From positions 1 to 45,531 of the IMG/VR virus record IMGVR_UViG_3300021440_000007: a stretch of 45,531 nucleotides of DNA; one strand, written 5' to 3'. Source of the DNA: a virus. A model generated the notes under the pieces. The model searched no databases. It was not told where the DNA came from and saw only the letters and a program-made list of their open reading frames with translations. Shown here piece by piece: positions 22,178 through 37,972 of the stretch; position 1 is the first letter of the stretch; each line of letters begins with the position of its first letter. Both the position numbers and the translations under genes were made by a program.

Positions 22178-24700
22178 TTGATCGTTAGTCTGTTCATTGA
22201 TGCGGAGGACAACCGCCCGGGTCCCATGCCCAGTGATTGGGCTACGTGGGTTGCGACCATCAAGTCCGAGGGGCACATGGTCCTGGACTTACCCCCGGAG
22301 TTGGCTACCCCCACCGAAGAAAACAAGAAGGCCCTGAAGGCCCATAAGCTCCATTGCCCGATGTACTCCCCCACGGAGTTCACGGAAGGGGGCCGGAAAT
22401 CGAAGGCCGATAGCGTCCTGATCCACTTCGGAGTCTTGGACCTTGACCACATCACTATGGATGCTGTGGCGGAGTTCGTCCTCACGGCCCAATCCCAGGG
22501 GATAGAGATCCTCCTCTACACCACGTTTAGCCACGTGATTACCTCCACCTTGGGAGAGCCCGAAAACGTAAGTATCCGGGCCATGTTCCCTTTCTCCCGT
22601 CCGGTACCCGCGGCCCTCTGGAGCGCATTCTGGCCACGTATGAACGCATACCTAGGAGGGTATGGGGACACCCAATGCTGTAACGAGGATCGGGGGTATT
22701 TCGTCCCCAGCGTTCCAGTGTGGCGTGCGGACGATGCCCAGATCCTCCACTACCCCGGCCGCCCCCTTCCGGTGGACGATATCTTGGACTTGCCTATCTC
22801 TGTGGAGAAGCTCCGGCAAGCGGCGGGCCGGTCTACGGTCAAGGTAACGCACCAAGAGTTAGCCCTCTTGGCCAAGACCCTGGCCAAGAAAACCCCCGAG
22901 GTAGGGTTAGCCCTCCAACGAGTTCTCCAGGGGGAACCATTCGCAGAACACGGGCTCCGGGATAACATGCTTTTCAAGCTTGCCGGAGAGATAGCCAAGG
23001 CCTTTCCGAACGCGGACGCAAGCTCCATAGCGATCCACTTCCAAGCCTCCATAAGCCACTTCGGAGACGCTGATCTAAACTGGGTTACGGAGAAGATTCA
23101 ACGGAGGCAAGCGGACGCGCTAGAGGTCCAGGAGGCTAACGAACGGGAGGCTATAGCCACAGCCCGCCAAGCCATCCGGGACGCGTTCGTGGGGGGCTCC
23201 TGGGAGGGCCGGGATACCCCGTACACCCAAGCCGATCTGGAGGCCTTCGCACGGGAGGGCCGGTGTACCCCGGAGGAGTTCAAGCGCCGGTGGATCATCC
23301 AACTCCAAGGCTCCTATTACTTCTGGGTAGGAGGCCGGGGGTATGTGGGCCCCTATGATAAGGAGTCGGCTAAGCTAGCCGTCCACAGCTTCCTAGCCCC
23401 GGCCACAACCCTGGGAGTAAGACTCACGGAGATTACCCTCCAAGGAGAGTTCCTAAAGCGCAACTGTAATGATATGGCCTTGGATTACGGGACCGTGTGC
23501 GATTCGGTGGTGTTGGACATGCACGCCCAAACCTCGTATTTCGACTTGAAGCACCGGACGCTACACCGGGCCCCGTGCCCTTTGCGGGATTTGAAACCGG
23601 AGTTTCATCCCCAGATCCACCAGTGGCTCCAACTATTCGCGGGGGTAGAGTACCACAACCTGGAGCTTTGGCTCTCCTGGATCACGGCCTTGGATAGACC
23701 CGCCGTTGCTCTGTTCTGCGAAGGCTCCCCGGGCTCGGGTAAGAGCCTCCTGGCCAAAGGAGTGGCCCGGCTCTGGACCAAGAACGCTCCCACCTCCCTG
23801 GAGCAAGCCCTTAGCCAGTTCAATGACTCCCTAGCTAACTGTCCTCTGGTGTTTGCGGATGAAGTGCTCCCCAAAGACTTCCGGGGGAAAGGCCGTACCG
23901 GGGAACTCCGGGAGTTCATCCAATCCGATCAACGGGCCTACAAGCGGAAGTTTCTGCCGGACGCCACGTTGAAGGGCTGCGCGCGTGTAATCATCGCGGC
24001 AAACAACCGGAGCGCTCTGGAGGGGGAGGAGAACCTTACAGCCAATGACGTGGCCGCGATCGTCGGACGGTTCCTCCACATCGAAACCAAGCGGGAGGCT
24101 TTCGAGTTCTTGCGCTTTGTCGGGACGGAGGGATGGGTAACGGATGATCTGATTGCTAAACACGTCCTCTGGATCGTGCACAACTTGCCGAAGCCCACCA
24201 CGATCCCCCGCTTCCTGGTAGAGAGTCCCGGGGGTAAGCTTACCCGCACCATGGCCACCTCCACGATCATGGGCTCGGCTATTACCCATTGGGTTGTTAG
24301 CTTCTTGCTGGCCCCGGAGAAGCTCCGAGGAGGAAGGGCTCCGGGAGACTCGGCCCACCTAATCCGGGTAGCTCGGGGCAAGGTCCACATTAACCCCCGG
24401 GTACTGACAGACCATTGGGACCGTTACGCTACGAACGTTCCCATTGAGAAGGCCACAGCCAAGGCCGTAATGATGGGCATCCGCGGACTCTCGGACACCC
24501 AACCGGACGAACGCGTGGCCCTAAGTACCCCTGGGTACACCCACCGGAACCGCCCCAAGTTCTACGCCTTGCGGACGGAGGATCTGATTGAATGGGCCAC
24601 CGGAGGTTATTCAAGCTCGGAGGAAATCCTCCTGGCTATCCAGCGGTTAGAAGAAATCGACGCCAAGGCCCTTGATTTTGAAACACCCCCAGGAGTATAA
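22178..24700 (+). CDS. Bifunctional primase-polymerase (AEP) / SF3 (D5-like) replicative helicase
   Basis: 840 aa. AEP motifs IHFGVLDLDH (DxD) and LLYTTFSH. The helicase part has Walker A CEGSPGSGKSLLA, Walker B LVFADEV and motif C RVIIAANN. The TTG start at 22178 is preceded by AGAGG; an alternative ATG is at 22226. Confidence 0.75.
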   Translation: MIVSLFIDAEDNRPGPMPSDWATWVATIKSEGHMVLDLPPELATPTEENKKALKAHKLHCPMYSPTEFTEGGRKSKADSVLIHFGVLDLDHITMDAVAEFVLTAQSQGIEILLYTTFSHVITSTLGEPENVSIRAMFPFSRPVPAALWSAFWPRMNAYLGGYGDTQCCNEDRGYFVPSVPVWRADDAQILHYPGRPLPVDDILDLPISVEKLRQAAGRSTVKVTHQELALLAKTLAKKTPEVGLALQRVLQGEPFAEHGLRDNMLFKLAGEIAKAFPNADASSIAIHFQASISHFGDADLNWVTEKIQRRQADALEVQEANEREAIATARQAIRDAFVGGSWEGRDTPYTQADLEAFAREGRCTPEEFKRRWIIQLQGSYYFWVGGRGYVGPYDKESAKLAVHSFLAPATTLGVRLTEITLQGEFLKRNCNDMALDYGTVCDSVVLDMHAQTSYFDLKHRTLHRAPCPLRDLKPEFHPQIHQWLQLFAGVEYHNLELWLSWITALDRPAVALFCEGSPGSGKSLLAKGVARLWTKNAPTSLEQALSQFNDSLANCPLVFADEVLPKDFRGKGRTGELREFIQSDQRAYKRKFLPDATLKGCARVIIAANNRSALEGEENLTANDVAAIVGRFLHIETKREAFEFLRFVGTEGWVTDDLIAKHVLWIVHNLPKPTTIPRFLVESPGGKLTRTMATSTIMGSAITHWVVSFLLAPEKLRGGRAPGDSAHLIRVARGKVHINPRVLTDHWDRYATNVPIEKATAKAVMMGIRGLSDTQPDERVALSTPGYTHRNRPKFYALRTEDLIEWATGGYSSSEEILLAIQRLEEIDAKALDFETPPGV

Positions 24701-24710
24701 AGGGGCCTCT

Positions 24711-25112
24711 ATGGAAACCGAAACCCTTTGCCCTTTGTGTGTCAACCCGGTGGAGTTTGCCCCCCAGAGGGCCAAGTGGGTGGTGTGTGCTCGACACGCT
24801 ACGATCCTCCCCAAGGCCCGGAAGACCATCCGGCCGCATGCTCCACCCCCGGCCCAGCTAAGCCTGGTAGAGCCCGAAACCTTGGAGGGTAAGATCCGGG
24901 AGGCATTGACCCAGCTCCACGGACCTCCACCCTGGGATTTCAAAGCAACGATTACAGCCACCCTGCAAGGAGTGGATGAAGAGTTGACCGCAATCCGGAG
25001 TGTGATTTCCCAACTTGCAATCCGGCTTCAAGAGCTGGAGGGAGCCTCTTGTCCCCGATGCTCTAACAAGTGTGTTGAAGGGATCTCATTGAAAGACCGG
25101 GGGAAAGAATGA
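24711..25112 (+). CDS. Hypothetical protein (CxxC at the N-terminus, CPRC near the C-terminus)
   Basis: ORF trimmed to METETLCPLC..., which starts just after the primase stop. 133 aa. Confidence 0.55.
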   Translation: METETLCPLCVNPVEFAPQRAKWVVCARHATILPKARKTIRPHAPPPAQLSLVEPETLEGKIREALTQLHGPPPWDFKATITATLQGVDEELTAIRSVISQLAIRLQELEGASCPRCSNKCVEGISLKDRGKE

Positions 25113-25486
25113 GCACACTCCACAAGGTATGTTTTGCGGTAGCGATCTACATCCCAGCGGTTACTATCCTAGGGTTTATGCTCCACTGGAAGGTAATCTC
25201 CGTGTGGCCTCGGGACTCGGAGAGGGACCGGGCCAGGCGGATGGCCCGTGCGGCCGGTTCTGTGTTCTTCTGGCTCCTCCCTGAAGGAGAACAACGGGCA
25301 TGGTTGGCCGCGGCCCGTCATGCCCGGTGGGGCCTGGGCCCTAACCTCATTCGATTGGCCTACTATGACCATTTGGAAACAGAGCACCCCCGGCCCCTTT
25401 GGGCTCCAGGCATTGAGAGACACTGGAACCGGCTTCATTACCGGGAGAAAGCTTTTTGGGAACGAATCACGGAGGCCTCAAAATGA
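25109..25486 (+). CDS. Small membrane protein
   Basis: 125 aa, ATGA-coupled. N-terminal TM segment VCFAVAIYIPAVTILGFML. Confidence 0.55.
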   Translation: MSTLHKVCFAVAIYIPAVTILGFMLHWKVISVWPRDSERDRARRMARAAGSVFFWLLPEGEQRAWLAAARHARWGLGPNLIRLAYYDHLETEHPRPLWAPGIERHWNRLHYREKAFWERITEASK

Positions 25487-26205
25487 CCAAGTATGTTACC
25501 CCTAAGGTTGCCCAACTCCACCGGTATCAAATGGACCGCCGGGCTCGGTTGGGCTCGGCCGAGTTCAAGACCGTGGCGGGGGTCCGCAACCCGGACGAAA
25601 AGCCTACACAACCCGGGGTGTATGAAGAGTTCATCCATGATGAATCGATCTTCCTCGATTACACCGCGTGCAAAACGTGCGGCTACTTGATGTGTGGCTG
25701 TAAGCCCAAGCTCGGAGTCCTTCGGGCCCAGCTTCTAAAGGAAGCCTCCCAGTGGATAAACGAGTCTTTGCAGTTTCCGGAGGAGGGCTTCAAAGACCAG
25801 TTGGAGGCTTACCTGGGCCTGGATTTCTCTAGGCTGGCCCTAGGACCTTCCGCCTACAGGATGGCTAGCCCAGGGTATCAAATCAAAGATCTAAAGTTGG
25901 AGGGTAAGACCTTCCTCCCCGTACTAAGCACCACCCGGGATATTGAACGCCACGTAACCCGGTGGGTAACGGACGCAATGACCCCAGGTGGGGATTATGT
26001 GGTCCAGAGCCGGGAGAGTCTGTGGCAAGCGGCTTACGCTTTGAAGGCCGAGCTACGTCAAATGTTACCCGCGGTCCTTTCCGTAGAGGTGGAGCTACCC
26101 CGCCGGGAAGACGATCTAACGTTCTTCAAGATCCTCATACGTGGCGTGGAGCTTGTTGAAATGGTGGTGTCCGTGCCCCGCACCTACTACGGTAGGGCCT
26201 TTTGA
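25483..26205 (+). CDS. Hypothetical replication-module protein
   Basis: Start MTKYV... is ATGA-coupled to the previous stop. 240 aa. Contains CKTCGYLMCGC. Confidence 0.55.
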   Translation: MTKYVTPKVAQLHRYQMDRRARLGSAEFKTVAGVRNPDEKPTQPGVYEEFIHDESIFLDYTACKTCGYLMCGCKPKLGVLRAQLLKEASQWINESLQFPEEGFKDQLEAYLGLDFSRLALGPSAYRMASPGYQIKDLKLEGKTFLPVLSTTRDIERHVTRWVTDAMTPGGDYVVQSRESLWQAAYALKAELRQMLPAVLSVEVELPRREDDLTFFKILIRGVELVEMVVSVPRTYYGRAF

Positions 26206-28175
26206 CAACCTGGGCCGAAGTCCAAGCTATGAGCTGGGGCCAGGTTGCGGAGAACCCCGCCGCCGCGGCCTTGAGGATTGCCGGGGGTCAAGTAGACCTG
26301 GACCCCCCGCTCCTCCCAGCTCCGGCTACTACCCCCGAGCTTTCCGCGTCCCAATGGAAGACCTATTCAGAGTGTGCCCGTAAGTGGGCTTGGAAGTACC
26401 TCCATGGCTTGCCCGACCCTTCGGGGATATCCGCCCAGGTGGGGCTCCGGGTCCACAAGATCCTGGAGGATTATCTAAAGACCGGAGCCCCCATCAACGG
26501 CCTTGAGGTGTTGGAGCTACTAGACCCCCGTACCCAACGGATGGTCCGGTATCTCCCGGGCCAGGTGGCCCAAGCCACCACCCATCTATTACCCCCGCCC
26601 GGCTTTGCAATCGTGGAGGAGGGTTTTACTTACCAGACTGACGCCACCAAGTGGCGCGGGTTCATGGATGTCCAAGGGCTTATCCGAACTCCCGAGCCCG
26701 GAGGCCCTATCCTCTGGCTCCCGTCTACCCACCCGGTTGTGGATGCGGTAGAGGCGGCCGTCCTAGATCACAAGGCAACGAGTGACCTAAAGTGGGCCAA
26801 GACCCAACAAGATCTCCGTGAGGATATCCAAGCGAACATATACGCGGGGGTAACTATGCAAAGGTTCGGGAAGTCCCGGGCCTACTTGCAATGGAACTAT
26901 GTCACAATGCGGGGCCGTTCCCAGTCTCGCCCCACCTCGATTTGGAGAACCAAGACGGAGGTAGAGGAGTTCATGGGTACCGTAGCCGATCCAGTGGCCC
27001 GGCAGATCCAACAACTGTACAAGCTCCGGCCCAAAGCCAAGGAGCTACCGGCCAATACGGCCGCGTGTGAGAGCTACGGTGGTTGCCCATTCCGGGCCCA
27101 CTGCAATCTAGGTATGAAAGAACGGATGGAGGCTCAAGTGGCTAAGGAAACAATCGACGAAATCATCGCACGGAAGAAAGCGGCCCGGGGACAGTTGGAG
27201 AACTCTGGGGCTCCCCTACTCCCGGGGGTAACAGTACCTCCCCAAGCGCCGGTCCAAGCCCAAGCGCCGGTCCAAGCCCAAGCGCCGGTCCAAGCCCAAG
27301 CGCCGGCCCTTCCCCAGCTCCCTCCGTTGCCTCCAGCGCTCCCAACCCAGCCGGTGGGGTATTGGAAGCCGGGAGACCCGGAGAACCCCGCCCAGGCTTA
27401 CCTCCGGGGCCAGGGGAAACCCCTCTCCGTGATCGCAAGTGCGGCAGACATGCCACCCCCGGACCACATCCGGCTGGCCTACGATGCTGGAGGTATGACG
27501 GAGCGGGGCATCATCAACCCACCAGAAGCTCCAGCCGCGGCCCCTCCGAGCCCCGCGTATATGCCCCCGGTCCCCCAAGCTCCGGCCCAGGCTCCAGTGC
27601 TCCCAGCCCCCGCTCCAGTGGCCTCGGTTCAACAAATGGCCCCAGGGGCGGGAGACAACCTGGACGCGCTCACACGGGACCAACTCAAGGACGTGGCCGT
27701 GGCCCGTGGTCTTATGACCACATCATCCCGTCACGGAGCGGACGCAATCAAGGATATGTTACGCAAGTCCGGGGTTACCCACGTGGAGGGTTTCCCCTCT
27801 CCGGCCGCTCCGACCATTCCAACCCAAGCTCCAGCCCTCCCGGCTCCGGCTCCGATCCGGTTCCAAACACCTCAAGTTGGTTCCGTGGGTTTCGTGCTCC
27901 ACATCAACTGTAGGTCCACCCCACCCAAGTCCTTGGAGGTGGTGGAGTCCATCGATCTGATTACCTCCGCCGTGGAGAAGCTCCGAGAGGATGGAGTCCA
28001 GGACTACCGCTTGGTGGAGTACGGTAAGGGCCCTGCCATGCTGTGCGCTCTGGTGGAGGATTACGTCCTGGCCCTCTCCCCGGACGTGGTGATCTTGGAC
28101 GCACATACCCCCGAGGGCCTGTGTATCCAGTCCACCTTGGAACGGCTGGCCGCGGCCGTGATCCGGGGCTTCTAG
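26202..28175 (+). CDS. Cas4/RecB-like PD-(D/E)XK Fe-S nuclease fused to a Pro-rich linker, a HeH/SAP-like motif and an unknown C-domain
   Basis: 657 aa. Contains SASQWKTYSECARKWAWKY, VLDHKAT (D-x-K), QANIYA and CESYGGCPFRAHC, i.e. 1+3 Cys as in Cas4/AddB clusters. Then (QAPVQA)n, LDALTRDQLKDVAVARGL, and a roughly 110-aa C-terminal domain. The start is uncertain: TTG at 26202 or ATG at 26229. Confidence 0.65.
   Translation: MTTWAEVQAMSWGQVAENPAAAALRIAGGQVDLDPPLLPAPATTPELSASQWKTYSECARKWAWKYLHGLPDPSGISAQVGLRVHKILEDYLKTGAPINGLEVLELLDPRTQRMVRYLPGQVAQATTHLLPPPGFAIVEEGFTYQTDATKWRGFMDVQGLIRTPEPGGPILWLPSTHPVVDAVEAAVLDHKATSDLKWAKTQQDLREDIQANIYAGVTMQRFGKSRAYLQWNYVTMRGRSQSRPTSIWRTKTEVEEFMGTVADPVARQIQQLYKLRPKAKELPANTAACESYGGCPFRAHCNLGMKERMEAQVAKETIDEIIARKKAARGQLENSGAPLLPGVTVPPQAPVQAQAPVQAQAPVQAQAPALPQLPPLPPALPTQPVGYWKPGDPENPAQAYLRGQGKPLSVIASAADMPPPDHIRLAYDAGGMTERGIINPPEAPAAAPPSPAYMPPVPQAPAQAPVLPAPAPVASVQQMAPGAGDNLDALTRDQLKDVAVARGLMTTSSRHGADAIKDMLRKSGVTHVEGFPSPAAPTIPTQAPALPAPAPIRFQTPQVGSVGFVLHINCRSTPPKSLEVVESIDLITSAVEKLREDGVQDYRLVEYGKGPAMLCALVEDYVLALSPDVVILDAHTPEGLCIQSTLERLAAAVIRGF
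27243..27306. repeat. Perfect 18-bp tandem repeat (about 3.5 copies) inside the nuclease gene
   Basis: caagcgccggtccaagcc occurs three times plus caagcgccgg, read directly. It encodes QAPVQAQAPVQAQAPVQAQAP. Confidence 0.9.
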
Positions 28176-28179
28176 TCCC

Positions 28180-30084
28180 ATGGCCTTGTCCGCTATAGAG
28201 CAAGTGCTCCAGGCCACCGGCTTGACGCTGGAGCAACTACGCGCGGACTCGGAGGAAAAGGTAGGACCGAAAGCCGGAAACAAAGTCCTAGAGGTTCCGA
28301 ACTCCTCGGAGTTGCGCCGGATAATCGGGCTCCCCCGGCGGAGTTCGGACCTTGTGGACTACTTGGTGAAGGAGCTAACCGCGGCCTTATCCACCCCGTG
28401 GGGCCAACAAACTCTCCGGCCCATCCAAGCCCGGGCCCTAGCGGAGATCCACCAGTGTGGGGGGCTCTTGGCCCCCATCGTAGTGGGCGGGGGTAAGACC
28501 CTGATCACGTACTTGATCCCCGAGATCTTGGACGCCAAACGGCCGATCCTCTTAGTCCCGGCAAAGCTCAAGGAGAAGACCCGGAGAGACTTCCGGACGT
28601 TGGCCTACCACTGGGTAGGGCCCCACCCCGATGGGTTCCGGATAGAGTCCTATGAACTCCTAAGCCGGGTTAGTGCGGGGAACCAATACGACAAAGCCGG
28701 AAACCTGATCCAACCGGGGTTCCTGGAGCGCTACCGGCCGGATGTGATCATCCTGGATGAAGGCCACAAAGCCAAGAACCAAAAGGCCGCGGTTACCCGG
28801 CGCTTGAACCGGTACCTAAGAGAGAACCCAGGAACAAAAATAATCAGCATGTCCGGGACTTTCATCAACCGGAGCCTAAAGGACGTGGGCCATATCTCGG
28901 ACTGGTGTCTCCGGGAGTTGTCACCTTACCCCCGGGTTCCGAGCATCCTAGATGATTGGGCGGATGCCATTGATGAAAAGGTCAACCCGATCAAAAGGCT
29001 CCAGCCCGGGGCTTTGGTCGAACTCTGTACAACCCCCGAAGAACTCCAGGCCATCAAGGTGGGAGGCTCGGAGGGGCTTTCCAATCTGCGCAAAGTCTTC
29101 CAGCGTAGAATGATTGATACCCCCGGGGTAGTGGGTACGGTCGGAGGCCGGGAGCAAGTAGACGCATCCATTACCATGGGAGGGATCGCGGGAGTCTACC
29201 AGGACAAGATCATGGAGCCCCACTTCAAGAAGCTCCGACAGTTTATCCTCCCGGATGGTACAGACCTCCCCGACGGGATTTCCATTTGGCGCCATGCCTT
29301 AGAAATGGGGTTGGGGTTCTATTACACGTGGGACCCACAACCCCCGATCGAATGGATGCGAGCCCGTAGCGAATGGGCGGGGTATTGCCGCGAGGTCTTG
29401 AAGCACAACAAGCGGGGGCTAGACACGGCCCACCAAGTGGCCCTGGCTGTGGACCAAGGGCTTTACAACGATGAAGGCCGTTTAGCAGAATGGCGGAGAC
29501 TAAGCCCCACGTTCAAGATCAAGCCTAAGGCTGTGTTCTTGACGGAGGAAGTGATGGAGGTAACCGGCCGGTGGTTGAACGATAACCGGGGGATTATCTG
29601 GGTCAAACACGTGGAGCTAGGGAACGAACTCTCTCGCCGGATGGACTTAGAATACTATGGCCGGGAGGGATACAATACCAAGGGGGTATATATAGAGGAC
29701 CATCCCCAGGGGTATCCTTTGATTGCCTCCGCTCCATCGAACTCGGAAGGCCGAAACCTACAGTACAAGTGGCACCAAAACCTTATCCTCTCCGCGGACT
29801 ACAACGGTAAGGCCATGGAGCAACTTACCGGCCGCACGCACCGGCCCGGACAACCGGAGGAGGAGGTTACGTTCGATTTCTATTACGGGTGTGGGGAGGC
29901 TATTGCGGGAGTCCACCAGGCCCGCCGGGACGCGCGAATGGAAATGGACGTAACCGGCCAGGACCAAAAAATGGCTTACGCCGATTGGTTGGACTTCCCG
30001 ACGCTGGTAGATAACCCCGGCGGAGGCTACTACCGGTGGCTTACGGGGAAGCTCACGGAAGAAAATGAGCGGAGGGAACTTTAG
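28180..30084 (+). CDS. SNF2/DEAD-like superfamily 2 helicase
   Basis: 634 aa. Motif I VVGGGKTLI, motif II IILDEGHKAKN, motif III MSGTF, motif VI LTGRTHRPGQ. Confidence 0.75.
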   Translation: MALSAIEQVLQATGLTLEQLRADSEEKVGPKAGNKVLEVPNSSELRRIIGLPRRSSDLVDYLVKELTAALSTPWGQQTLRPIQARALAEIHQCGGLLAPIVVGGGKTLITYLIPEILDAKRPILLVPAKLKEKTRRDFRTLAYHWVGPHPDGFRIESYELLSRVSAGNQYDKAGNLIQPGFLERYRPDVIILDEGHKAKNQKAAVTRRLNRYLRENPGTKIISMSGTFINRSLKDVGHISDWCLRELSPYPRVPSILDDWADAIDEKVNPIKRLQPGALVELCTTPEELQAIKVGGSEGLSNLRKVFQRRMIDTPGVVGTVGGREQVDASITMGGIAGVYQDKIMEPHFKKLRQFILPDGTDLPDGISIWRHALEMGLGFYYTWDPQPPIEWMRARSEWAGYCREVLKHNKRGLDTAHQVALAVDQGLYNDEGRLAEWRRLSPTFKIKPKAVFLTEEVMEVTGRWLNDNRGIIWVKHVELGNELSRRMDLEYYGREGYNTKGVYIEDHPQGYPLIASAPSNSEGRNLQYKWHQNLILSADYNGKAMEQLTGRTHRPGQPEEEVTFDFYYGCGEAIAGVHQARRDARMEMDVTGQDQKMAYADWLDFPTLVDNPGGGYYRWLTGKLTEENERREL

Positions 30085-30178
30085 CCCCTTGACACGGGTT
30101 TTTCCCTCCTACATGCTGGGGGCTCAAAAGAAAAGCTCCGGGGATTCCCCGGACATAAACTGGGGAGAGTAACAGACC

Positions 30179-30895
30179 ATGGCCAAGACAAAGACCAAGA
30201 AGAACCGCAAGGGTAAGAAGAAGGCCGCCAAGCGGGCCGCCAAGAAGACCGGCCCGAAGAAGACCCAAGCCCTGGCCCGTGGTGGTATGTTCCAGGTGGT
30301 CAAGTTCGTGGCCAGCCGTTCCAAGGCCCAGCTCCCCGAGGTGATCAAGAAGTTTGGAGCGTGTGAATCCACCACGGACAACTGGCTCCGTAATGCCACC
30401 CTGAAGGGGCTCCTGGACCGCTACACTCCACCCCCGGGCACCTTTGCCGGTAAGCGGGGGCCGGGTAAGCTCGGCCGGCCCGCAAGTGACTACACTGTGA
30501 CGGCTAAGGGCCGCAAGGCAATCAAGGCCGGTCCTAAGTCCTCCTTCTTCGATGCGCGCAGGGTCCGGGATGATGTGCGGGCTTTGCGGGAGGAAGCGGA
30601 AGCCCAGGTGGAGAAGAAGCGCCAAGAAACCAAGGAGGCTAAGGCCACCAAGAAGACCAAGCGCGCGGAGGCTACCGAGGAGGAGACCCAGGCCAAGAAG
30701 GCCGCACGCGATCACAAGTTTGGGAAGAAGGTCCGCAAGGGCCCGAAGGCCAAGCCCGTGGTAACTCCCGCTCCGGATGCGGAGAAGCTCGCCAAACAAA
30801 AGGAAGCCAAGGCCAAGCGGGACGCGCGGTACCGTGAGAAGCTCAAGGCCCAACGTGCGGCCGGGGTGGCGGTTGCTGACGCTAAGTCCCTCTAA
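30179..30895 (+). CDS. Lysine/alanine-rich DNA-binding protein with linker-histone-like architecture (basic tail, winged-helix-like core, basic tail)
   Basis: 238 aa. N-tail MAKTKTKKNRKGKKKAAKRAAKKTGPKK. Core FQVVKFVASRSKAQLPEVIKKFGACESTTDNWLRNATLKGLLDR...YTVTAKGRKAIKAG. The C-tail is rich in K, A and E (EKKRQETKEAKATKKTKRAE...AKQKEAKAKRDARYREKLKA). Confidence 0.6.
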   Translation: MAKTKTKKNRKGKKKAAKRAAKKTGPKKTQALARGGMFQVVKFVASRSKAQLPEVIKKFGACESTTDNWLRNATLKGLLDRYTPPPGTFAGKRGPGKLGRPASDYTVTAKGRKAIKAGPKSSFFDARRVRDDVRALREEAEAQVEKKRQETKEAKATKKTKRAEATEEETQAKKAARDHKFGKKVRKGPKAKPVVTPAPDAEKLAKQKEAKAKRDARYREKLKAQRAAGVAVADAKSL

Positions 30896-30901
30896 AACTT
30901 A

Positions 30902-31001
30902 CCCCCGTCCCTAAAGACACAGACACACCACAAGCCCGATGGACGGGGGCTTAGGGACTTGGGTGGGGGCCCGCTCATTACTTGAGCCCCACCCAAGTCC
31001 C
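30902..31001 (+). promoter_or_regulatory. Two consecutive strong hairpins downstream of the H1-like gene
   Basis: cccccgtcc (30902-30910) pairs with ggacggggg (30941-30949). gggacttgggtgggg (30954-30968) pairs perfectly over 15 bp with ccccacccaagtccc (30987-31001). No U-tract follows, so this is not a canonical terminator. Confidence 0.45.
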
Positions 31002-31056
31002 CTCTTAGACAGAACGACACAGACCCTAAGACAGACAATCCACAGGAGTAAGACAC

Positions 31057-31914
31057 ATGGGATGGTACGATCGGATCGGCAACGTCAAGGTAAACAACAA
31101 CGGACAAAGCTTGGGGATCGGAGATTATGTTCTCTTGATCTGTAAGCAGAAAGAACACCGGAGCACGGTCCCGGGGAAGGCCGGAACCTTCTTCATTACG
31201 GAGTATCAGGTCTTGCAATCGACCAACCCCGCACACCCCCAGGGATCGAAGGGGGCCCGTGTGGTGCGCTTGGATGGCCGGTTCCCAGACTCGGCCTTGG
31301 CGGACGTGAAAGCGGAGATCGCCGCCGCTTGCGGTCTGGAGCCCACGGGCCCGGAAGCGGACGCACAGATTACCCCCGCCGTGGCAGACTCGGCCACGCA
31401 TGTTACCCAACCATTCGCGGGGGTAGTGGTTATGGCCAGTGTCCACTCCAAGCCACCGGGCCCGAACTCCGCTCCGGGAGCCAAGCCGTTCAACAAGTTT
31501 ACATACCACCCAGTCCTGGAAAATGGCGTGGTCAAGCGGCTACCGGTCCCCGCGGGGATGCGGCTCTCCGATGAAGCCCAAGGCCAGGGAGGTCTCCCGA
31601 GCCACCAACCCCAAGGCTATGGAGTTCCGGCCGCCCCAGCTCCGAACGGCTACGGACCCCAAGGAGGCTGGCAACCTCCGGCCACGGCATACTTCGGGGC
31701 CACACCACAAGCTCCAGGATACGCTCCTCCGGTTGGGGCTCCTGGAGGGTACCCACAAGCTCCGGTGGCCTCACAGCCTCCGGCATTCCCTCCCATGGGT
31801 TGGGTAGCCCACCCCCAGAGCCCGATCCACTTTTGGAAGCCGGCACTAGGGGGAAGCTCCCCCGCGTTGACGGAAGCCGAACTCCGCGCAGCCATGGCGG
31901 CGGGCCGAGCTTGA
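31057..31914 (+). CDS. Hypothetical protein with a Pro/Gly/Tyr/Gln-rich low-complexity C-half
   Basis: 285 aa with GGAG 7 nt upstream. The N-domain is probably beta-rich. The C-half reads GYGVPAAPAPNGYGPQGGWQPPATAYFGATPQAPGYAPPVGAPGGYPQAPV. Confidence 0.6.
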   Translation: MGWYDRIGNVKVNNNGQSLGIGDYVLLICKQKEHRSTVPGKAGTFFITEYQVLQSTNPAHPQGSKGARVVRLDGRFPDSALADVKAEIAAACGLEPTGPEADAQITPAVADSATHVTQPFAGVVVMASVHSKPPGPNSAPGAKPFNKFTYHPVLENGVVKRLPVPAGMRLSDEAQGQGGLPSHQPQGYGVPAAPAPNGYGPQGGWQPPATAYFGATPQAPGYAPPVGAPGGYPQAPVASQPPAFPPMGWVAHPQSPIHFWKPALGGSSPALTEAELRAAMAAGRA

Positions 31915-32171
31915 TCCTCTCCCTGCTAGCACTGTTAGGCGTGTTGGTCTTACTCCTTTGGACCGATGCTCCCAGCCAGTGCGACAACATTAGCGAACCT
32001 CCACGGGGTGAGGTTTGTAGGTCGGAATGGTTCCGACCGGCCCAGGGCGTAGGTCCTCGGGTTCTATATGCCAGCAGATACTACCGATGTGGGGGCATTC
32101 GGGATCGCCATAGCGCGCGGGTAATGCCCGCGTACCACCCCGATAAACAAAGGTGCGGGCTCTCCCGATAA
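31911..32171 (+). CDS. Possible small membrane/secreted Cys-containing protein (TTG start)
   Basis: In-frame tail of ORF 31800-32171. TTG overlaps the upstream TGA (TTGA). The N-terminus ILSLLALLGVLVLLLW is followed by four Cys. Several codons are rare for this genome, so it may be non-coding. Confidence 0.25.
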   Translation: MILSLLALLGVLVLLLWTDAPSQCDNISEPPRGEVCRSEWFRPAQGVGPRVLYASRYYRCGGIRDRHSARVMPAYHPDKQRCGLSR

Positions 32172-32277
32172 CGTGAGAGCTAAAGGGGAGCCCGCACCCT
32201 CTAAGAAGCCTAGGGGTAACGATCTAGACGGGGCGGCCCAGGACGTGGGTTTGCCTACTCCTAGGCTTCTTAGAGGG
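32152..32277 (+). promoter_or_regulatory. Two abutting inverted repeats upstream of polA
   Basis: ggtgcgggctctcc (32152-32165) pairs with ggggagcccgcacc (32186-32199). A perfect 18-bp inverted repeat, ccctctaagaagcctagg (32197-32214) / cctaggcttcttagaggg (32260-32277), has a 45-nt spacer. Confidence 0.5.
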
Positions 32278-32390
32278 TTCTGCGGTACGTAAAGGCGTGT
32301 CGAGCTTGGGAGGTTTGTCTCCCTGTAAGTCTCGGGGTTCTATCCCCCAAGCCGTAGTCCCCTCTCAAACCCAACCCCGGGGATAAGTCC

Positions 32391-34403
32391 ATGGATATCA
32401 ACTCCTTTGACACGGAAACTTTTTTGATTAGTCCCGGGTGTGGGGCCCCTCCTATGGTTACCCACCAGTGGAGGATCAACAAAGACCGGGCGGATATCAT
32501 CCACGCGAGGGACCCAGCAACCCGGAGGATAACCCAGGAACTCCTAGAGCGTACCTTCTTGAACGGCCATAACCTGGCCTTCGATATGGCGGTTCTGTGT
32601 GCGTACGATCCGGACTTCATTCCCTTGGTCTTCCGGGCCTACAATGAGAACCGGGCGGTATGTACAGCCATCCGAGAGAGGCTCCGGGACATTGCCGTGG
32701 GGGAGTTTGAAGGCCGCATCCCTGGCCAATCGGATGAAGAAGAACCCACCAAGCGCAAGTGGGGTTACTCCCTAGCGGAGGTGGCTCTCCGGAACTCGGA
32801 CGGGGCGATCATCCTGGACAAGACCGATCCTTGGAGGCTTCGGTATGGCACGCTCTACCACACTCCGCTTTCTGAGTTCCCTCCGGAAGCCCTCAACTAT
32901 GCCCTTCTAGATGCGGAGACCCAGGGGGAAGTCTTCCACCTCCAGAGCCACCGGATTGATCCGAGCTTCTTGGAAGATCAGTACCGACAGTCCCGCGCGG
33001 CCTTCTGGATTCAACTTATGCAACTGTGGGGTATCCGAACGGACCCGGTAGCGGTTGCGAAGTTCCACCAAGCCACACTGGCCGAGTATGAGAAGGATAA
33101 GCAAATCCTGATTGATAACCTCCTAGTTAGAGCCCGGAGCATCAAAGGAAAGAAAGCCGGGAGCCGGGACACCAAGTTGGCCATGGAGCACATGGTCTCC
33201 GTCATGCGTAACTTACAAGAGGATCTAATCCTCACGGAGACGGGAGAGGAACTCCGAGCCGAACGGGAGAAGGTCTTGGGCCGCCCTGTTACCCCTTGGG
33301 AAATCTGGGAGACTGAAAAGAAATACGTGAACCTATCGGAGGACGCGGTATTGGCCACGGCCGATCCGTTGCTTCTCTCCTACCAACAATACGGCTCCCT
33401 CCAGACCACACTCAGTAGGGCCGAACGGCTGTATAAAGGAACGGAGCTTCCTCTCCAAGCCCAACACCAAACTATCGTAGCCACGGGCCGGACCTCCTGC
33501 CGTATGGGGGAGGTGGAGCCCGGAGTCTCTCCTCCTAGCTGGGGCTTCCAGCTCCAAAACATTCCGACTAAGCCCGGGCTCCGAGAGTGTTTCATCCCCC
33601 GGCCGGGGCGGTTGTTTTGCTCCGTGGATTACGACGGTATGGAGCTACGCGCATGGGCCCAGGTGTGCCTATGGTCCGTGGGGTTCTCCCGCCTTGCAGA
33701 GGTTCTCAATGCTGGCCAAGACCCCCACACGGAGTTAGGGGCCTCGGTTGCTGGGATCACGAAAGCCCAGGCTTACGAGTTGATGAAGCTCGGGGATAAG
33801 ATCTTCAAGAACGAGCACAGACAAACCGCCAAGATTGGTAACTTTGGGTTTCAAGGGGGTATGGGCCCCAAAGCCTTCAGAACCCAAGCCCGGAAGGAAT
33901 ACCGGGTCAAGCTCTCCTTGGAGACCTGTAAGACTCTCCGGAGCTTGTGGCTTGAAGAGTGGCCGGAGGGGCCCGCCTACTTTGAGTGGATAAACAGTCT
34001 GTGTGGAAACGGCCTAGCTACGATCCAACACTTTCTCTCCCACCGTATCCGCGGATATATCAAGTACACGGTAACGTGTAACTCCTTCTTTCAAGGGCTA
34101 GCCGCGGACGCGGCCAAGGCCGCCGGTTGGCAACTGGCTTACGAGTGTTACGTAGATACCTCCAGCCCCCTCTACGGATGCCGGATCGTGGCGTTCATCC
34201 ATGACGAGTTCATTATAGAGGTCCCCGACCACCCCGAGCGGGCCCACCTTGCAGCCTACCGAATGCGGCAAATCATGGTGGACGTGGCCCAGAGCTGGAT
34301 ACCTCAAGTCCAGATCACGGCAAGCCCGGCGCTATCCCGCAAATGGACCAAGGGAGTAAAGACCGTCCACGATGCCCACGGCCTACTAGTCTGTGGGGAC
34401 TAG
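32391..34403 (+). CDS. polA: Family A DNA polymerase with 3'-5' exonuclease domain and no 5' nuclease domain
   Basis: 670 aa. Exo I SFDTETF, Exo II GHNLAFDM, Exo III NYALLDAE. Pol motif A VDYDGMELR, motif B RQTAKIGNFGFQGGMG, motif C FIHDEF. Confidence 0.85.
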   Translation: MDINSFDTETFLISPGCGAPPMVTHQWRINKDRADIIHARDPATRRITQELLERTFLNGHNLAFDMAVLCAYDPDFIPLVFRAYNENRAVCTAIRERLRDIAVGEFEGRIPGQSDEEEPTKRKWGYSLAEVALRNSDGAIILDKTDPWRLRYGTLYHTPLSEFPPEALNYALLDAETQGEVFHLQSHRIDPSFLEDQYRQSRAAFWIQLMQLWGIRTDPVAVAKFHQATLAEYEKDKQILIDNLLVRARSIKGKKAGSRDTKLAMEHMVSVMRNLQEDLILTETGEELRAEREKVLGRPVTPWEIWETEKKYVNLSEDAVLATADPLLLSYQQYGSLQTTLSRAERLYKGTELPLQAQHQTIVATGRTSCRMGEVEPGVSPPSWGFQLQNIPTKPGLRECFIPRPGRLFCSVDYDGMELRAWAQVCLWSVGFSRLAEVLNAGQDPHTELGASVAGITKAQAYELMKLGDKIFKNEHRQTAKIGNFGFQGGMGPKAFRTQARKEYRVKLSLETCKTLRSLWLEEWPEGPAYFEWINSLCGNGLATIQHFLSHRIRGYIKYTVTCNSFFQGLAADAAKAAGWQLAYECYVDTSSPLYGCRIVAFIHDEFIIEVPDHPERAHLAAYRMRQIMVDVAQSWIPQVQITASPALSRKWTKGVKTVHDAHGLLVCGD

Positions 34404-34409
34404 GAGAGT

Positions 34410-34916
34410 ATGCTAATCAAAGAACACGGACTGAAGATCTGTACCATAGACCCCGGGCGTAACCTCGGGTGGGCTTGTTGGTATAGCCGGGACTTGATCG
34501 CATGTGGCCTTACAAGGTCCCGGCTCAAGGAGGTGGGCGGGCTCGGACTAGCTCTAGCGGAGGGTATCCCCGTGGGAGCCGATCGGGTGTACGTGGAGCA
34601 AATGGTCCACTATCCCGGTAAGACCCGATCCAAACAACGGGAGGAGGCCCAGCCCAATGATCTGATCCAGGTCACGGCCCTTGGGGCGATCGTGGCCGGT
34701 CGCATCGACGCAAAGGAGATCCATTACCTCCCGGCTATCAAGTGGAAGGGTACTCGGCCCACGGAGGGGGTCATTGAAAAGATCGTGGACAAGACCTTAG
34801 GCGCGGAGGAAACCGCGATCTATGAAGCGGCAATGGAGGCCACCCCTCGGAGCCTCCGGCATAACATTGTGGACGCTGTAGCCATTGGGCTGTGGCTCCA
34901 TGGGAGGATGCGTTGA
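34410..34916 (+). CDS. RuvC-like Holliday junction resolvase
   Basis: 168 aa. ICTIDPGRNLGWA (Asp), VYVEQM (Glu) and HNIVDAVAIGLW (His/Asp), in RuvC order. Confidence 0.55.
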   Translation: MLIKEHGLKICTIDPGRNLGWACWYSRDLIACGLTRSRLKEVGGLGLALAEGIPVGADRVYVEQMVHYPGKTRSKQREEAQPNDLIQVTALGAIVAGRIDAKEIHYLPAIKWKGTRPTEGVIEKIVDKTLGAEETAIYEAAMEATPRSLRHNIVDAVAIGLWLHGRMR

Positions 34917-35542
34917 TGGATACCCCCGTGTGTAAACAGTGTGATGGAGTTCGTTACCTTCCTGTGAATGCTTTAGACCACCAAGCTGGGATCGTTCGGC
35001 CTTGTGAGGCTTGCAATCCCAAGGGGGAACTCCCGTGCTCTTGGACCTACACCGGCCAGAACGCCCAGAGCCCCGAACTATGCTCCATGTGCCGGGGAGC
35101 CATGAACCAACACGCGGCCCCCTTGGTTTCCGAGGAGCCAAAGCCCGCGTTTAGATCGGCTCCTTGGGCCAAGGCCCTATTGGTTTCAGAAGAACCAAAG
35201 CCCGGGGGTATTGAGATCACCAAGGAGGGGCACTTCCAACCGGCTAAGTCCTTGCTCCCCGTGGGGACAAAACACGACACAGGAAAGCCCCGCTTTGACT
35301 TGATGCCCCCGCGCGCGGAGTTGGCGGTTATCGAGGTCTTGGAGTTCGGAGCCCAGAAGTATGGTGTGGACAACTGGAGGAACGTACCCGAGGCCGAAGC
35401 CCGGTATTATTCAGCGCTCCGGCGCCACTTGAACGCATGGCGGGCCGGGGAGAAGAAAGATCCAGAATCGACCAAGACCCACTTGGCCCACGCCGCATGC
35501 TGTATTATCTTCCTCCTTGAGCTGGAACAAACCAAGGAGTAA
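34916..35542 (+). CDS. CxxC zinc-finger domain fused to a MazZ-like dATP/dGTP pyrophosphohydrolase domain
   Basis: TGATG-coupled start (MDTPVCKQCDG...). Three motifs: CKQCDG, CEACNPKG, CSMCRG. A duplicated LVSEEPKP follows. The C-domain GTKHDTGKPRFDLMPPRAELAVIEVLEFGAQKYGVDNWRNV...RHLNAWRAGEKKDPESTKTHLAHAACCIIFLLE matches my recollection of the phage dATP/dGTP diphosphohydrolase family. Confidence 0.6.
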   Translation: MDTPVCKQCDGVRYLPVNALDHQAGIVRPCEACNPKGELPCSWTYTGQNAQSPELCSMCRGAMNQHAAPLVSEEPKPAFRSAPWAKALLVSEEPKPGGIEITKEGHFQPAKSLLPVGTKHDTGKPRFDLMPPRAELAVIEVLEFGAQKYGVDNWRNVPEAEARYYSALRRHLNAWRAGEKKDPESTKTHLAHAACCIIFLLELEQTKE

Positions 35543-35547
35543 GGCCC

Positions 35548-36411
35548 GTGAAACAAGAGTATGTGGAGAAACGGTTCAACCGGAAGTCCAACCGGATGAT
35601 CGAAACCGCAGAACAGATCATCCAGAAGTACCAATCCATAGACCTCCGGCTTACCCTCCGGCAACTCTATTACCAGTTCGTAGCCCACCACGGACTCCCC
35701 AACACGGAGAAGAGTTACAAGAACCTGGGCCGGTTGATCTCGGATGCGCGGTTGGCCGGACGCATTGACTGGAACGCGATTGAAGACCGCGGCCGGGTTC
35801 CAGATAGTCCCCCGGATTGGGACTCCGCGGAGGAGGTTGTGGAGGCCGCCTTACACCAGTTCCGCCTACCCCGCCGGGCCGATCAAGACGCGTATGTGGA
35901 GCTGTGGGTGGAGAAGCAAGCTCTAGCCGGTGTGTTGGAGCCCGTAGCCCGGCGCCACCATATTACCTTGATGGTGAACAAGGGGTATTCCAGCCAAAGC
36001 GCCATGTATGAAAGTGCCCAGCGGTACCTCCGGCACAAAGATAAAACCCCCGTGCTTCTCTACCTGGGGGATCACGATCCCAGTGGGGAGGATATGGTCC
36101 GGGATATTGGAGCCCGGCTCCGGACCTTCCGGGTGGACTTCATCGAAGTAACCAAGGTGGCGCTTACCATGGCCCAGGTAAAGCAGCACAACCCACCACC
36201 CAACCCGGCTAAGCTCTCCGACTCCCGAGCCAGTAAGTACATCCGGAAGCACGGAGCTAGCTCTTGGGAGGTAGACGCATTGGACCCGGAGACCCTTGTG
36301 GCCCTGATTGAAAAGGAGATCTTGGCCCACACCCAGGTCCGCCGGTTCCTCAATGTAATCAAGGAGGAAAAGCTCCAGGTGGCCAACGTCCGAAAGGCCC
36401 TAGGCCTATGA
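35548..36411 (+). CDS. Spo11 / topoisomerase VI subunit A-like protein (5Y-CAP + Toprim only; Mini-A-type)
   Basis: 287 aa. The GTG start follows AAGGAG. Motifs LTLRQLYYQF, YVELWVEKQALAGVL and VLLYLGDHDPSGEDMV occur in Top6A order. Confidence 0.55.
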   Translation: MKQEYVEKRFNRKSNRMIETAEQIIQKYQSIDLRLTLRQLYYQFVAHHGLPNTEKSYKNLGRLISDARLAGRIDWNAIEDRGRVPDSPPDWDSAEEVVEAALHQFRLPRRADQDAYVELWVEKQALAGVLEPVARRHHITLMVNKGYSSQSAMYESAQRYLRHKDKTPVLLYLGDHDPSGEDMVRDIGARLRTFRVDFIEVTKVALTMAQVKQHNPPPNPAKLSDSRASKYIRKHGASSWEVDALDPETLVALIEKEILAHTQVRRFLNVIKEEKLQVANVRKALGL

Positions 36412-36812
36412 GACTCACGGTTATTGAGTCCCCCTATGCTGGTAAGGTGGAGGAAAACCTGGCCTATCTGGACCAAGCTATCCTCCATTGCCTCCGCCGG
36501 AATGAGTCCCCCTATGCATCCCACAAGATGCTAACCACGGCCCTAAACGATAACATCCCCGTGGAGCGCCGGTTGGGGATAGACGCGGGCTTGGCCTTCC
36601 GCCGCCACATGCATAACCGAGCTTTCTACATTGACCTTGGTTGGTCGGGAGGGATGGAGGCCGCGCTCCGGCTTTACCTCCGGGAAGGCCTAACCTTTGA
36701 ACTCCGAACCATCTACGGGGAAATGGTTTGGGAGTCTTGCCGTACCGCATTCACCCCGGGGCTCCTCGGTATGGATAGGTGCATACAACACGTCAAGGGG
36801 ATACACCTATGA
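36408..36812 (+). CDS. Hypothetical protein, possibly with a nucleoside 2-deoxyribosyltransferase-like fold (DUF4406-like)
   Basis: 134 aa, ATGA-coupled. TVIESPYAGKVEENLAYLDQA...ESPYASHKML...DNIPVERRLGIDAGL...GWSGGMEAAL resembles a pattern I recall for that family. Weak call. Confidence 0.3.
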   Translation: MRLTVIESPYAGKVEENLAYLDQAILHCLRRNESPYASHKMLTTALNDNIPVERRLGIDAGLAFRRHMHNRAFYIDLGWSGGMEAALRLYLREGLTFELRTIYGEMVWESCRTAFTPGLLGMDRCIQHVKGIHL

Positions 36813-37429
36813 AGCCCACCGAAAGCCAACTAACCGCGCTCCTGATTACCTCCGAGGGTAAGAATCAAATCCAGGTAGCTTTCCAAGAGGCCTCGGATAC
36901 CCTCCAGGGAGTCCAGAGCTTCCCGTGTGAAGTGGACTCGGACGTGGCGGACTTGTCGGAAATCCTCGGGGTGGTCCGAGCCCGGCTCAAGGAGCTGGAG
37001 GAAGATCGGACCTCCATTACCAAGCCCCTGAATGCTGCGAAGCGGGCCGTGGATGCGTTCTTCAACCCCACGATCAAGCTCCTGGAGAAAGCGGAGGAGA
37101 CCATCCGGCAGAAGATCAACACCTTTGCTAGCACTCGCGAGCAAGCCCGGCAGAAGGCCCTAGCCGAAGCCCGGGAGGCGGCCCGGCTAGCTCTCCCCCC
37201 ACCGGTACCCGTGTTGGCTTTGGAGCCCCCTCCGGTGCCTTCGGGAATCTACTTCAAGCCCGTGTGGACCTGGGCCGTGGCCGATATCCACCAAGTCCCC
37301 CGGGAGTTCCTTATGGTCAACCCGATGGCCGTGGAGGCTTTGCTGGCCCCCTTCAAGGACTCCGAGCAAGTCCCGCAAGTCCCAGGCTTCACCTTCACAA
37401 GAGAACAACGGCTAGTGCCGAAAGGATAA
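36809..37429 (+). CDS. Coiled-coil protein of unknown function (architecture loosely like Mu Gam / DUF1351)
   Basis: ATGA-coupled start MKPTES..., 206 aa. A long helical segment is followed by a Pro-rich linker and a small C-domain. Confidence 0.5.
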   Translation: MKPTESQLTALLITSEGKNQIQVAFQEASDTLQGVQSFPCEVDSDVADLSEILGVVRARLKELEEDRTSITKPLNAAKRAVDAFFNPTIKLLEKAEETIRQKINTFASTREQARQKALAEAREAARLALPPPVPVLALEPPPVPSGIYFKPVWTWAVADIHQVPREFLMVNPMAVEALLAPFKDSEQVPQVPGFTFTREQRLVPKG

Positions 37430-37434
37430 CCCCC

Positions 37435-37791: not shown

Positions 37792-37972
37792 CTTTGAGAT
37801 CCACGCGTACCGGTCAAAAGAAACAGGGGAGTGGTGTTTCCGAATCACTTTCCAGAGGTGTGACGAGAAGGAGATCCAGTTGGGCTGGGCCGACCTACGC
37901 ACCTTGTTGGCGGGAGCCGGACCCCAGAACATTATCTCCACGTTGGCCTATCTGGCCCGATTACATGAATAA
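37784..37972 (+). CDS. Small hypothetical protein
   Basis: 62 aa, overlapping the previous stop by 8 nt. Confidence 0.45.
   Translation: MDNFEIHAYRSKETGEWCFRITFQRCDEKEIQLGWADLRTLLAGAGPQNIISTLAYLARLHE

Follow-up and report, generated by a model that had tools for sequence, protein, structure and literature searches.

Can a bacterial virus have arrived independently at a DNA-binding protein built like a linker histone? The question is raised by a lysine-rich gene product encoded at 30179-30895 of the viral record IMGVR_UViG_3300021440_000007 (IMG/VR), the 45,531 nucleotides of which are referred to here as the window. The original prediction had seen in this product the tripartite layout of histone H1, with a basic tail on either side of a winged helix. 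Our analyses revealed that the protein joins two well-known modules, a winged helix and lysine-rich tails, in a combination and a context not previously described. The nearest relatives of its core, by profile and by fold, are prokaryotic winged helices of the MarR, ArsR, AsnC, Lrs14 and Sso10a types, and the resemblance to H1 is convergent, not ancestral. We tentatively propose, with a little less than even confidence, that the protein is an abundant architectural, nucleoid-protein-like accessory of the phage replication module that binds double-stranded DNA. The gene and the parts of its product are as follows.

30179-30895, plus strand: open reading frame (ORF) of the winged-helix gene, ATG start, 238 amino acids
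30179-30286, plus strand: N-terminal basic tail, residues 1-36, with 13 K, 3 R and no acidic residues
30287-30529, plus strand: winged helix-turn-helix core, residues 37-117, with a predicted local distance difference test score (pLDDT) >90 for the helices and strands of the AlphaFold2 (AF2) model
30365-30403, plus strand: recognition helix, residues 63-75, with invariant S64, T65, D67, N68, W69 and R71
30530-30892, plus strand: basic K/A/E/R-rich C-terminal tail, residues 118-238, modelled by AF2 as long helices
30809-30856, plus strand: family-conserved C-terminal motif, K211-R226 (KAKRDARYREKLKAQR), defined from the family alignment

The ORF was found exactly as the original prediction had quoted it, and its product is as basic and as rich in lysine as had been claimed. 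With 47 lysines and 22 arginines, the whole protein has a net charge of +44 and a computed isoelectric point of 10.66. Residues 1-36 carry +16, residues 37-118 carry +11 and residues 119-238 carry +17, the central domain being indeed flanked by strongly basic tails. Lysine makes up 19.7% of the residues, against 7.1% in the next-highest and a median of 4.1% among the 47 plausible genes of the window, and 46 of the 47 lysine codons are AAG. In a genome of 59% G+C this content is far from chance, and the protein is a gross outlier. Two features speak for 30179 as the start codon: a Shine-Dalgarno sequence, GGGGAGAG, at 30162-30169, and the N-terminus "MAK.K", which the protein has in common with three of its relatives (P0002, P0004 and P0005) in the family alignment. 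An antisense ORF of 266 amino acids (30053-30853) overlaps the gene; the homology and fold evidence lies entirely in the plus-strand frame. Since the homologues conserve the core, the AF2 model of this core exceeds a pLDDT of 90, and the position of the gene is kept, we consider the ORF to be a real gene.

The central segment proved to be a winged helix, as had been predicted, and was neither disordered nor of another fold: the pLDDT is above 90 over residues 37-117. The AF2 model is composed of helix 37-47, a short beta bridge, helices 52-59 and 63-75, strand 79-82, a wing loop of about 21 residues with low confidence, strand 104-107 and helix 109-117. The full-length model built with the family alignment has a mean pLDDT of 79.5, and the core-only model has a predicted template modelling score of 0.71. 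In Foldseek searches against the PDB, the top matches were MarR, MepR, BpsR, Rv0880, PecS, PadR, ArsR-like proteins and ROK repressors, mostly with a query template modelling score (TM) of 0.56-0.65 and a root-mean-square deviation (rmsd) of about 2-3 Å over about 81 columns. The best of them include DNA-bound winged helices of MarR, MepR, BpsR and PadR, and on the MarR-type structures 1jgs, 5h3r and 6pco the core superimposes over 81 columns with a query TM of 0.63-0.65 and an rmsd of 1.8-2.8 Å. The archaeal chromatin-type winged helices Sso10a-2 and AbfR2 (Lrs14) also matched, as 4hw0 and 6cmv at E ~1e-3, and so did the pNOB8 centromere-binding protein.

Profile comparisons point the same way. 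The core profile matched AsnC (E=0.0018) and 2d1h (E=0.012), which has a G-R-P wing too, as well as IclR and MepR. In Pfam, members of the family matched HTH_23/28, TrmB, MarR, MarR_2 and IclR weakly. Sub-threshold MarR-family matches occurred in two to three of the eight relatives, with best E values of 4e-4 (MarR_2) and 0.054 (MarR); the target itself had no Pfam match to the MarR family (PF01047/PF12802), and no member rose above the gathering score. The Lrs14 model of NCBIfam matched three of the eight members weakly (best E 0.0018, below the cut-off). A fold search of BFVD returned generic phage winged helices only, with a lambda-type replication protein O at rank 12. One relative, P0005, carries the Joint Genome Institute (JGI) name "predicted ArsR family transcriptional regulator", which we take to refer to COG2345. 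Single-sequence matches of the target to RADX, LEF-2, phrog_15125 (E=0.0066) and SPC24 in Pfam, PHROGs and the PDB were set aside as low-complexity or insignificant.

With the MarR, ArsR, PadR and AsnC regulators (for example E. coli MarR, 1jgs; S. aureus MepR, 4lll; Sulfolobus ST1889, 2d1h), the core thus shares the topology of helix 1, a strand in some, helix 2, helix 3, strand, wing and strand, and the G-R-P wing of the family recurs in 2d1h and in the COG2345 family. Unlike these regulators, however, the target has neither dimerisation helices nor a ligand pocket, its sequence matches to them are sub-threshold, and it has a wing loop of about 21 residues, lysine-rich tails and a location in a phage replication module. 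In the AF2 model, MarR-type dimer-interface helices are absent, only the low-confidence basic tail preceding helix 37-47. In most relatives, the alignment places the beginning of the K/A/P tail directly past the wing, with no helix there.

The comparison with linker histones, on which the opening question turns, gave a mixed answer. The tripartite arrangement of basic tail, winged helix and basic tail is present in the target, and the layout is unlike that of HU/IHF, as had been stated; however, the N-terminal tail is not a family trait, and homology to H1/H5 or to chlamydial Hc1 was not found. When the central domain was compared with linker histones by Foldseek and by profile, it was prokaryotic winged helices that emerged instead. 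Linker histones were absent from the Foldseek PDB top 50, both for the full model and for the core alone. Neither the target nor any of the eight members matched Linker_histone (PF00538) or Hc1 (PF07432) in Pfam at E<=10, and hhalign gave the core profile a probability of 0.36% against an alignment of H1/H5 globular domains that had been entered by hand. The winged-helix fold is not diagnostic of H1, because it is common to hundreds of prokaryotic families. The likeness to H1 is therefore one of analogy, not of homology.

The protein belongs to a small family. When 1.84 billion cluster representatives were searched exhaustively by phmmer, with residues 29-131 as the query, seven true relatives (P0002-P0006, P0008 and P0010) of 117-200 amino acids emerged (E 1e-18 to 1e-4). 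P0011, which was left out of the family alignment, came from a profile search and brings the total to about eight related clusters, all of them metagenomic. Two further phmmer matches, P0007 and P0009, were excluded as repeat proteins in which only a short helix-turn-helix-like stretch aligns. The invariant columns are S64, T65, D67, N68, W69 and R71 in the third helix, G77, L79 and G87, then G99 and R100 in the wing, and finally Y105, T108 and G111. All aligned members have the core and the C-terminal motif, and all except P0010 have a long K/A(/P)-rich tail. The family signature consists of S-T-x-D-N-W-x-R, G-R-(P/A)...Y..T..G, a basic tail, a C-terminal motif resembling K.KRD..YR...KA.R, and a place after a superfamily 2 (SF2) helicase.

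Among GenBank phages, megablast (8 kb) and tblastn found no match to the gene or the region; a word-seeded protein search matched the target to itself only; a scan of IMG/VR with the family pattern gave zero relatives; and a scan of metagenome contigs returned only the known contig of P0002. As judged from sequence, this is a rare and previously unnamed phage family in an uncultured lineage with genomes of about 45 kb and contractile-tail genes. No description of the family was found in the literature searched, in which the sole phage "H1-like" report that we found concerns Hc1-type proteins (PMC12619734).

The tails differ among the members. The long N-terminal tail, to which AF2 assigns a low pLDDT of 52-64, is confined to the target and, in part, to P0002, the other members starting with "MAK.K" or directly with "MSL"; in the target, it appears to be a lineage-specific K-rich expansion of about 25 residues past the shared MAKTK start. 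The C-terminal tail of the target (119-238) has 24 K and 13 R against 20 D/E, is poor in proline (3%) and rich in glutamate (11%), and is modelled as helices 126-164, 167-181 and 201-237. The family motif K.KRD..YR...KA.R near its end is predicted to be helical. In the relatives P0002-P0008, the post-core tails are 72-101 residues long, with 21-28% K, 19-30% A and a net charge of +13 to +30; proline reaches 10-14% in P0003-P0008, against 3% in P0002 and the target. The tail of P0010, the shortest member (117 amino acids), is only 36 residues long. In K/A/P composition, with alanine at 26-30%, the tails of most relatives resemble the C-terminal domain of H1 or AlgP, and short KAKAEAKPK repeats are present in some of them, such as P0005. 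Tandem Repeats Finder (TRF) detected no more than two weak arrays in the target, with periods of 6 and 9 nt and scores of 31-33. A heptapeptide, A-[RK]-R-D-A-R-[YM], occurs both in the family motif (AKRDARYRE; 30809-30856) and near the C-terminus of the adjacent helicase (HQARRDARMEMD; HQARRDARY in a contig of a relative, L005:1-456), and may be either a chance match or a common interaction or DNA-binding peptide.

Several known systems share one part of this architecture. Sso10a and Lrs14/AbfR are architectural or global DNA binders and, like the target, small basic winged-helix proteins; the likeness is at the level of the fold only. The core of Sso10a continues into a long helix, comparable to helix 126-164, which is predicted in the target only; most relatives have no post-wing helix, and neither Sso10a nor Lrs14/AbfR has lysine-rich low-complexity tails. 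In eukaryotic H1/H5, basic tails surround a winged-helix globular domain, as in the target, and the K/A/P composition of the C-terminal tail is that of most family members. By contrast, the C-terminal tail of the target is poor in proline and predicted to be helical, not disordered, the N-terminal tail is not conserved in the family, and a bacterial host would not be expected to contain nucleosomes. Chlamydia Hc1/Hc2, Pseudomonas AlgP, Streptomyces DdbA and the PAKKA tail of mycobacterial Ku have K/A/P-rich low-complexity basic segments like those of the family, but are not built on a winged helix. These segments confer or modulate non-specific DNA binding (PMC2848022, PMC9239181, PMC3643593, PMC3553676), and such binding is added by the lysine-rich tails of Ku (PAKKA repeats; PMC3553676), DdbA (PMC3643593) and AlgP (PMC9239181). 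The target was rejected as an AlgP-type protein, having no tandem KPAA array by TRF and only 3% proline in its tail, and as chlamydial Hc1, having no match to PF07432 at E<=10. Hc1-type (PF07432) "histone H1-like" lysine-rich proteins were reported in large aquatic "moraphages" and discussed as possible genome compactors (PMC12619734); those belong to the Hc1 family, lack a winged-helix core and occur in jumbo phages, and the target represents a different family.

The position of the gene provides the second line of evidence. The window is essentially an entire phage genome, an identical protein being found on contigs of 45,509-45,536 bp. Its leftward arms encode terminase, portal, a Mu-F-like protein, DUF2213, an E217/Pam3-type cement protein and the major capsid protein, together with a DUF3383 protein, a minor tail protein, baseplate-like proteins and an amidase. 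The rightward module (22178-38066) encodes a DUF5906 primase-helicase, a PD-(D/E)XK nuclease, the SF2 helicase, the target, a protein termed orf285, PolA, a MazZ-like dGTP_diPhyd_N protein, a phrog "topoisomerase" and an exonuclease. GenBank phages are remote: the helicase had one match, 27% identical, and the best terminase match (Aeromonas phage 56) was 37% identical. The immediate neighbours of the winged-helix gene are the following.

28180-30084, plus strand: upstream SF2 (DEAD/ResIII-like) helicase, 634 amino acids, with sub-gathering Pfam matches to DEAD (E=6.7e-5) and ResIII (E=3e-4) and a match to PHROG 62, "DNA helicase"
31057-31914, plus strand: downstream neighbour orf285, with an N-terminal globular domain of about 130 amino acids, joined by a long P/Q/G/A-rich linker to a C-terminal peptide that is conserved

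The gene had been placed between an SNF2-type helicase and PolA. The helicase does lie upstream and PolA downstream; however, orf285 intervenes, and the helicase has no SNF2 match in Pfam, where only the weak DEAD/ResIII matches appeared, and no sequence match in the PDB. Its DEGH box and GRTHRPGQ motif nevertheless make the SNF2 type plausible. For orf285, searches of Pfam, PHROG and the PDB gave no match; its conserved C-terminal peptide reads GW..HPQ.P.HFWK...L.EA.LR..A.G.A, and our guess is that its layout, a flexible tail with an interaction tip, is like that of a single-stranded DNA-binding protein.

This neighbourhood is conserved around the homologues, which lie on the contigs L001 (P0005), L004 (P0002), L005 (P0003), L006 (P0004) and L007-L009 (P0006). 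The helicase is directly 5' of the family gene in L001, L005 and L007-L009, and a homologue of orf285 is directly 3' of it in L001, L004, L006 and L007-L009. In L005, it is the C-terminus of the helicase that precedes P0003, and in L004 the gene downstream of P0002 starts with MGWFDRV.... Homologues of orf285 were located at L007:10707-11690, L001:6084-6833, L006:768-1208, L004:1001-1177 and L010:10969-11601. The order of SF2 helicase, family gene and orf285 homologue fits all checkable neighbours in every informative contig, with PolA farther downstream in the longer ones. The distant phage MW202816 (L010) keeps the helicase, the orf285-like gene and the polymerase, and the winged-helix gene is absent from it. 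The gene is therefore a lineage-specific accessory, not a part of the core replication machinery.

Signals around the gene provide a third line, and comprise the following elements.

30089-30117, plus strand: promoter-like element, TTGACA, a 17-nt spacer and CATGCT, from sequence reading and pattern match, with a consensus -35 and a weak -10
30137-30153, plus strand: 17-nt palindrome, TCCGGGGA-T-TCCCCGGA, past the promoter-like box and ahead of the ribosome-binding site
30902-30949, plus strand: 3' hairpin 1, with a 9-bp G+C stem, CCCCCGTCC / GGACGGGGG, and a 30-nt loop
30954-31001, plus strand: 3' hairpin 2, with 15-bp perfect arms and no U tract

A TTGAC[ACT] box lies about 60-90 nt ahead of the start codon in all five loci with sufficient upstream sequence (the window, L001, L004, L005 and L007); in a consensus scan, L005 alone gave a promoter call (TTGACT-17-CATATT). 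The palindrome is a possible hairpin of the 5' untranslated region or a candidate operator, and each homologue locus has an inverted repeat of different sequence in the same position. The two very stable hairpins that had been noticed after the gene are there. At -32 kcal/mol, hairpin 2 forms the most stable 50-nt segment of the 45.5 kb, where the mean is -12.6 and the standard deviation 4.3, and the 176-nt stretch with both hairpins has a folding z of -4.9. Hairpin 2 is probably a terminator or an mRNA-stabilising element; a search of Rfam with the hairpins matched no family. In L007 and L001, too, strong hairpins come after the family gene, without conservation of sequence, and a cluster of such hairpins lies 3' of orf285 (31991-32278). 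We infer from this arrangement of promoter-like box, 5' hairpin, gene and 3' hairpins a putative monocistronic cassette with a stabilised mRNA, which suggests stoichiometric, abundant production.

AGACA-rich short repeats (TAAAGACACAGACACA, TTAGACAGAACGACACAGAC, TAAGACAGACA and TAAGACACATG) flank both hairpins at 30893-31060, a segment that holds four of the window's nine copies of GACACA; none were seen in L007 or L001. Two more very stable hairpins, at 4011-4100 and 42986-43035 (-31.6 and -30.5 kcal/mol per 50 nt), lie in or beside structural genes.

The ORF, its composition, the class of its fold, the family, the synteny and the hairpins are established observations, from which DNA binding, abundance and an architectural role are deduced. 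The ordinary reading, that of a basic winged-helix DNA binder, accounts for everything observed. The architectural role that we favour would work as follows. The prokaryotic-type (MarR/ArsR/Lrs14-like) winged helix would dock on double-stranded DNA and contact it through its invariant S-T-x-D-N-W-x-R recognition helix and through the G-R-P wing, which is long and basic. Since the recognition helix is invariant and polar, docking might show some preference for sequence or shape. The lysine-rich tails, of +16 and +17 here and K/A/P-rich in most relatives, would add strong sequence-independent electrostatic binding and neutralise backbone charge, permitting spreading, bridging or compaction; such a contribution agrees with the published findings on the lysine-rich tails of Ku, DdbA and AlgP (PMC3553676, PMC3643593, PMC9239181). 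A cassette with its own sigma-70-like promoter, a 5' hairpin and stable 3' hairpins could allow abundant production alongside the helicase, orf285 and PolA, and the protein would then act on phage DNA as it replicates, and perhaps on host DNA as well.

Several points weigh against this proposal. The recognition helix is polar (S, T, D, N and R), not rich in lysine and arginine, which is more typical of a sequence-specific regulator, and the named structural relatives other than Sso10a and Lrs14 are all transcription factors. A promoter of the gene's own, closely followed by a palindrome, would also suit an autoregulated repressor, and the cassette signals as a whole would fit an autoregulated regulator equally well. 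Neither the window nor L007 gave a promoter call in the consensus scan, and the -10 elements are weak. The C-terminal tail of the target has 20 acidic residues and is predicted to be helical, the AF2 confidence in this part being based on only eight sequences. The basic tails could bind RNA or polyphosphate instead.

The first alternative is a sequence-specific transcription factor, such as an autoregulated repressor or a switch of middle or late genes; the tails would then only raise affinity or aid sliding. The nearest relatives by fold and profile are MarR, MepR, AsnC, IclR, ArsR and PadR regulators, the invariant recognition helix implies a conserved target, and the promoter-like box is followed by the perfect palindrome 30137-30153, with inverted repeats in the same position in the homologue loci. 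However, those repeats vary between loci despite the invariance of the helix, and no 8-10-mer is convincingly common to the non-coding regions of the window, L007 and L001. The gene is also part of the replication module, and some 8 kb separate it from the divergent control region (21166-22177), whose GTGGGTCCCAC palindromes are absent from the relatives. MarR-type dimerisation helices are missing, and most relatives are without a post-wing helix. Tails of +13 to +30 and a lysine content of 20% would be unusual for specific regulators. On balance, we regard a specific regulator as rather unlikely, though a serious contender.

The control region deserves a description of its own. It is a divergent non-coding region of about 1 kb between the leftward and rightward arms. 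Within it, a 35-nt repeat, GTGGGTCCCACTTTGACCAATGAAATCCACTAGTTA, occupies ~21382-21418 and 21664-21699 and recurs in inverted orientation at 21614-21648; three GTGGGTCCCAC-type palindromes are also present, and the stretch ~21480-21560 is AT-rich. Across the window, the GTGGGTCCCAC palindromes are barely above chance. The region is a candidate origin or early control region.

A bolder version of the architectural role is that the phage makes a functional analogue of H1, an abundant protein that coats or condenses replicating phage DNA, possibly as a condensate with the orf285 protein, organises replication and shields the DNA from host nucleases and DNA-sensing defences, the H1 design having been reached by independent convergence. 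We consider this doubtful, and distinctly improbable in its full extent. Coating, shielding and silencing, the roles put forward in the original prediction, are conceivable for such a protein.

Slightly less probable again is a replication accessory in a narrower sense, namely a protein that binds the origin or serves as an organiser, or else a partner that targets the SF2 helicase or the orf285 protein to DNA or loads it. Its position between the helicase and orf285, with PolA farther downstream in the longer contigs, is strictly kept, many initiators bind DNA through winged helices (as the rank of protein O in BFVD recalls), and the A[RK]RDAR[YM] peptide is present in both the helicase C-terminus and the family motif. 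On the other hand, that overlap may be chance in low-complexity basic sequence, and no iterons or AT-rich tract were found in or beside the gene. The best origin-like region, with repeats and an AT-rich stretch, is the control region beside the DUF5906 primase-helicase, and the related module of MW202816 works without the winged-helix gene.

Packaging in the virion, for condensation of the DNA or for delivery to the host with the genome, would be compatible with the extreme basicity, which could neutralise the charge of packaged DNA, but is very unlikely, given that the gene belongs to the rightward replication module, all head, tail and packaging genes being on the other strand, and that no capsid-targeting or scaffold-cleavage signature was found in its product. 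A true homologue of H1/H5 or chlamydial Hc1, captured by the phage, is hardly credible: the gross layout and the H1-like K/A/P tails of most relatives are all that speak for it, against the failed Pfam, hhalign and Foldseek comparisons, the unconserved N-terminal tail and a wing with the prokaryotic G-R-P motif as in 2d1h.

If the architectural role is true, a bacterial virus has independently joined the winged helix and the K/A/P-rich tail that together define linker histones. This would be a clean case of convergent design, bearing on the origin of the tail and the globular domain of H1, and a new type of phage nucleoid-like protein beyond the HU/IHF, H-NS-like and Hc1-like ones, with possible roles in the organisation of replication or the evasion of DNA-targeting defences. 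If the protein is instead a conventional sequence-specific regulator whose tails are sticky, the result is modest: a small new winged-helix family in one uncultured phage lineage.

Three other genes of the window have features of their own. At 34892-35542, a MazZ-type dATP/dGTP diphosphohydrolase N-terminal domain (PF18909, E=2e-33) follows a Cys-rich N-terminal region, and a related phage has it too (L001:10300-10836); since no PurZ-like gene was present among the ORFs scanned, there is no evidence of a 2-aminoadenine genome. The PD-(D/E)XK nuclease ORF (26202-28175, 657 amino acids) has a nuclease N-terminus, a long Ala/Pro/Gln-rich low-complexity middle with tandem QAPV repeats and a C-terminal domain. 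Finally, at 18600-20051 in the leftward arm, with the packaging genes on one side and the control region on the other, a 483-residue protein has a C-terminal GDSL/SGNH lipase-acylhydrolase domain, and may be a polysaccharide-deacetylating or lipid-acting enzyme of host interaction.

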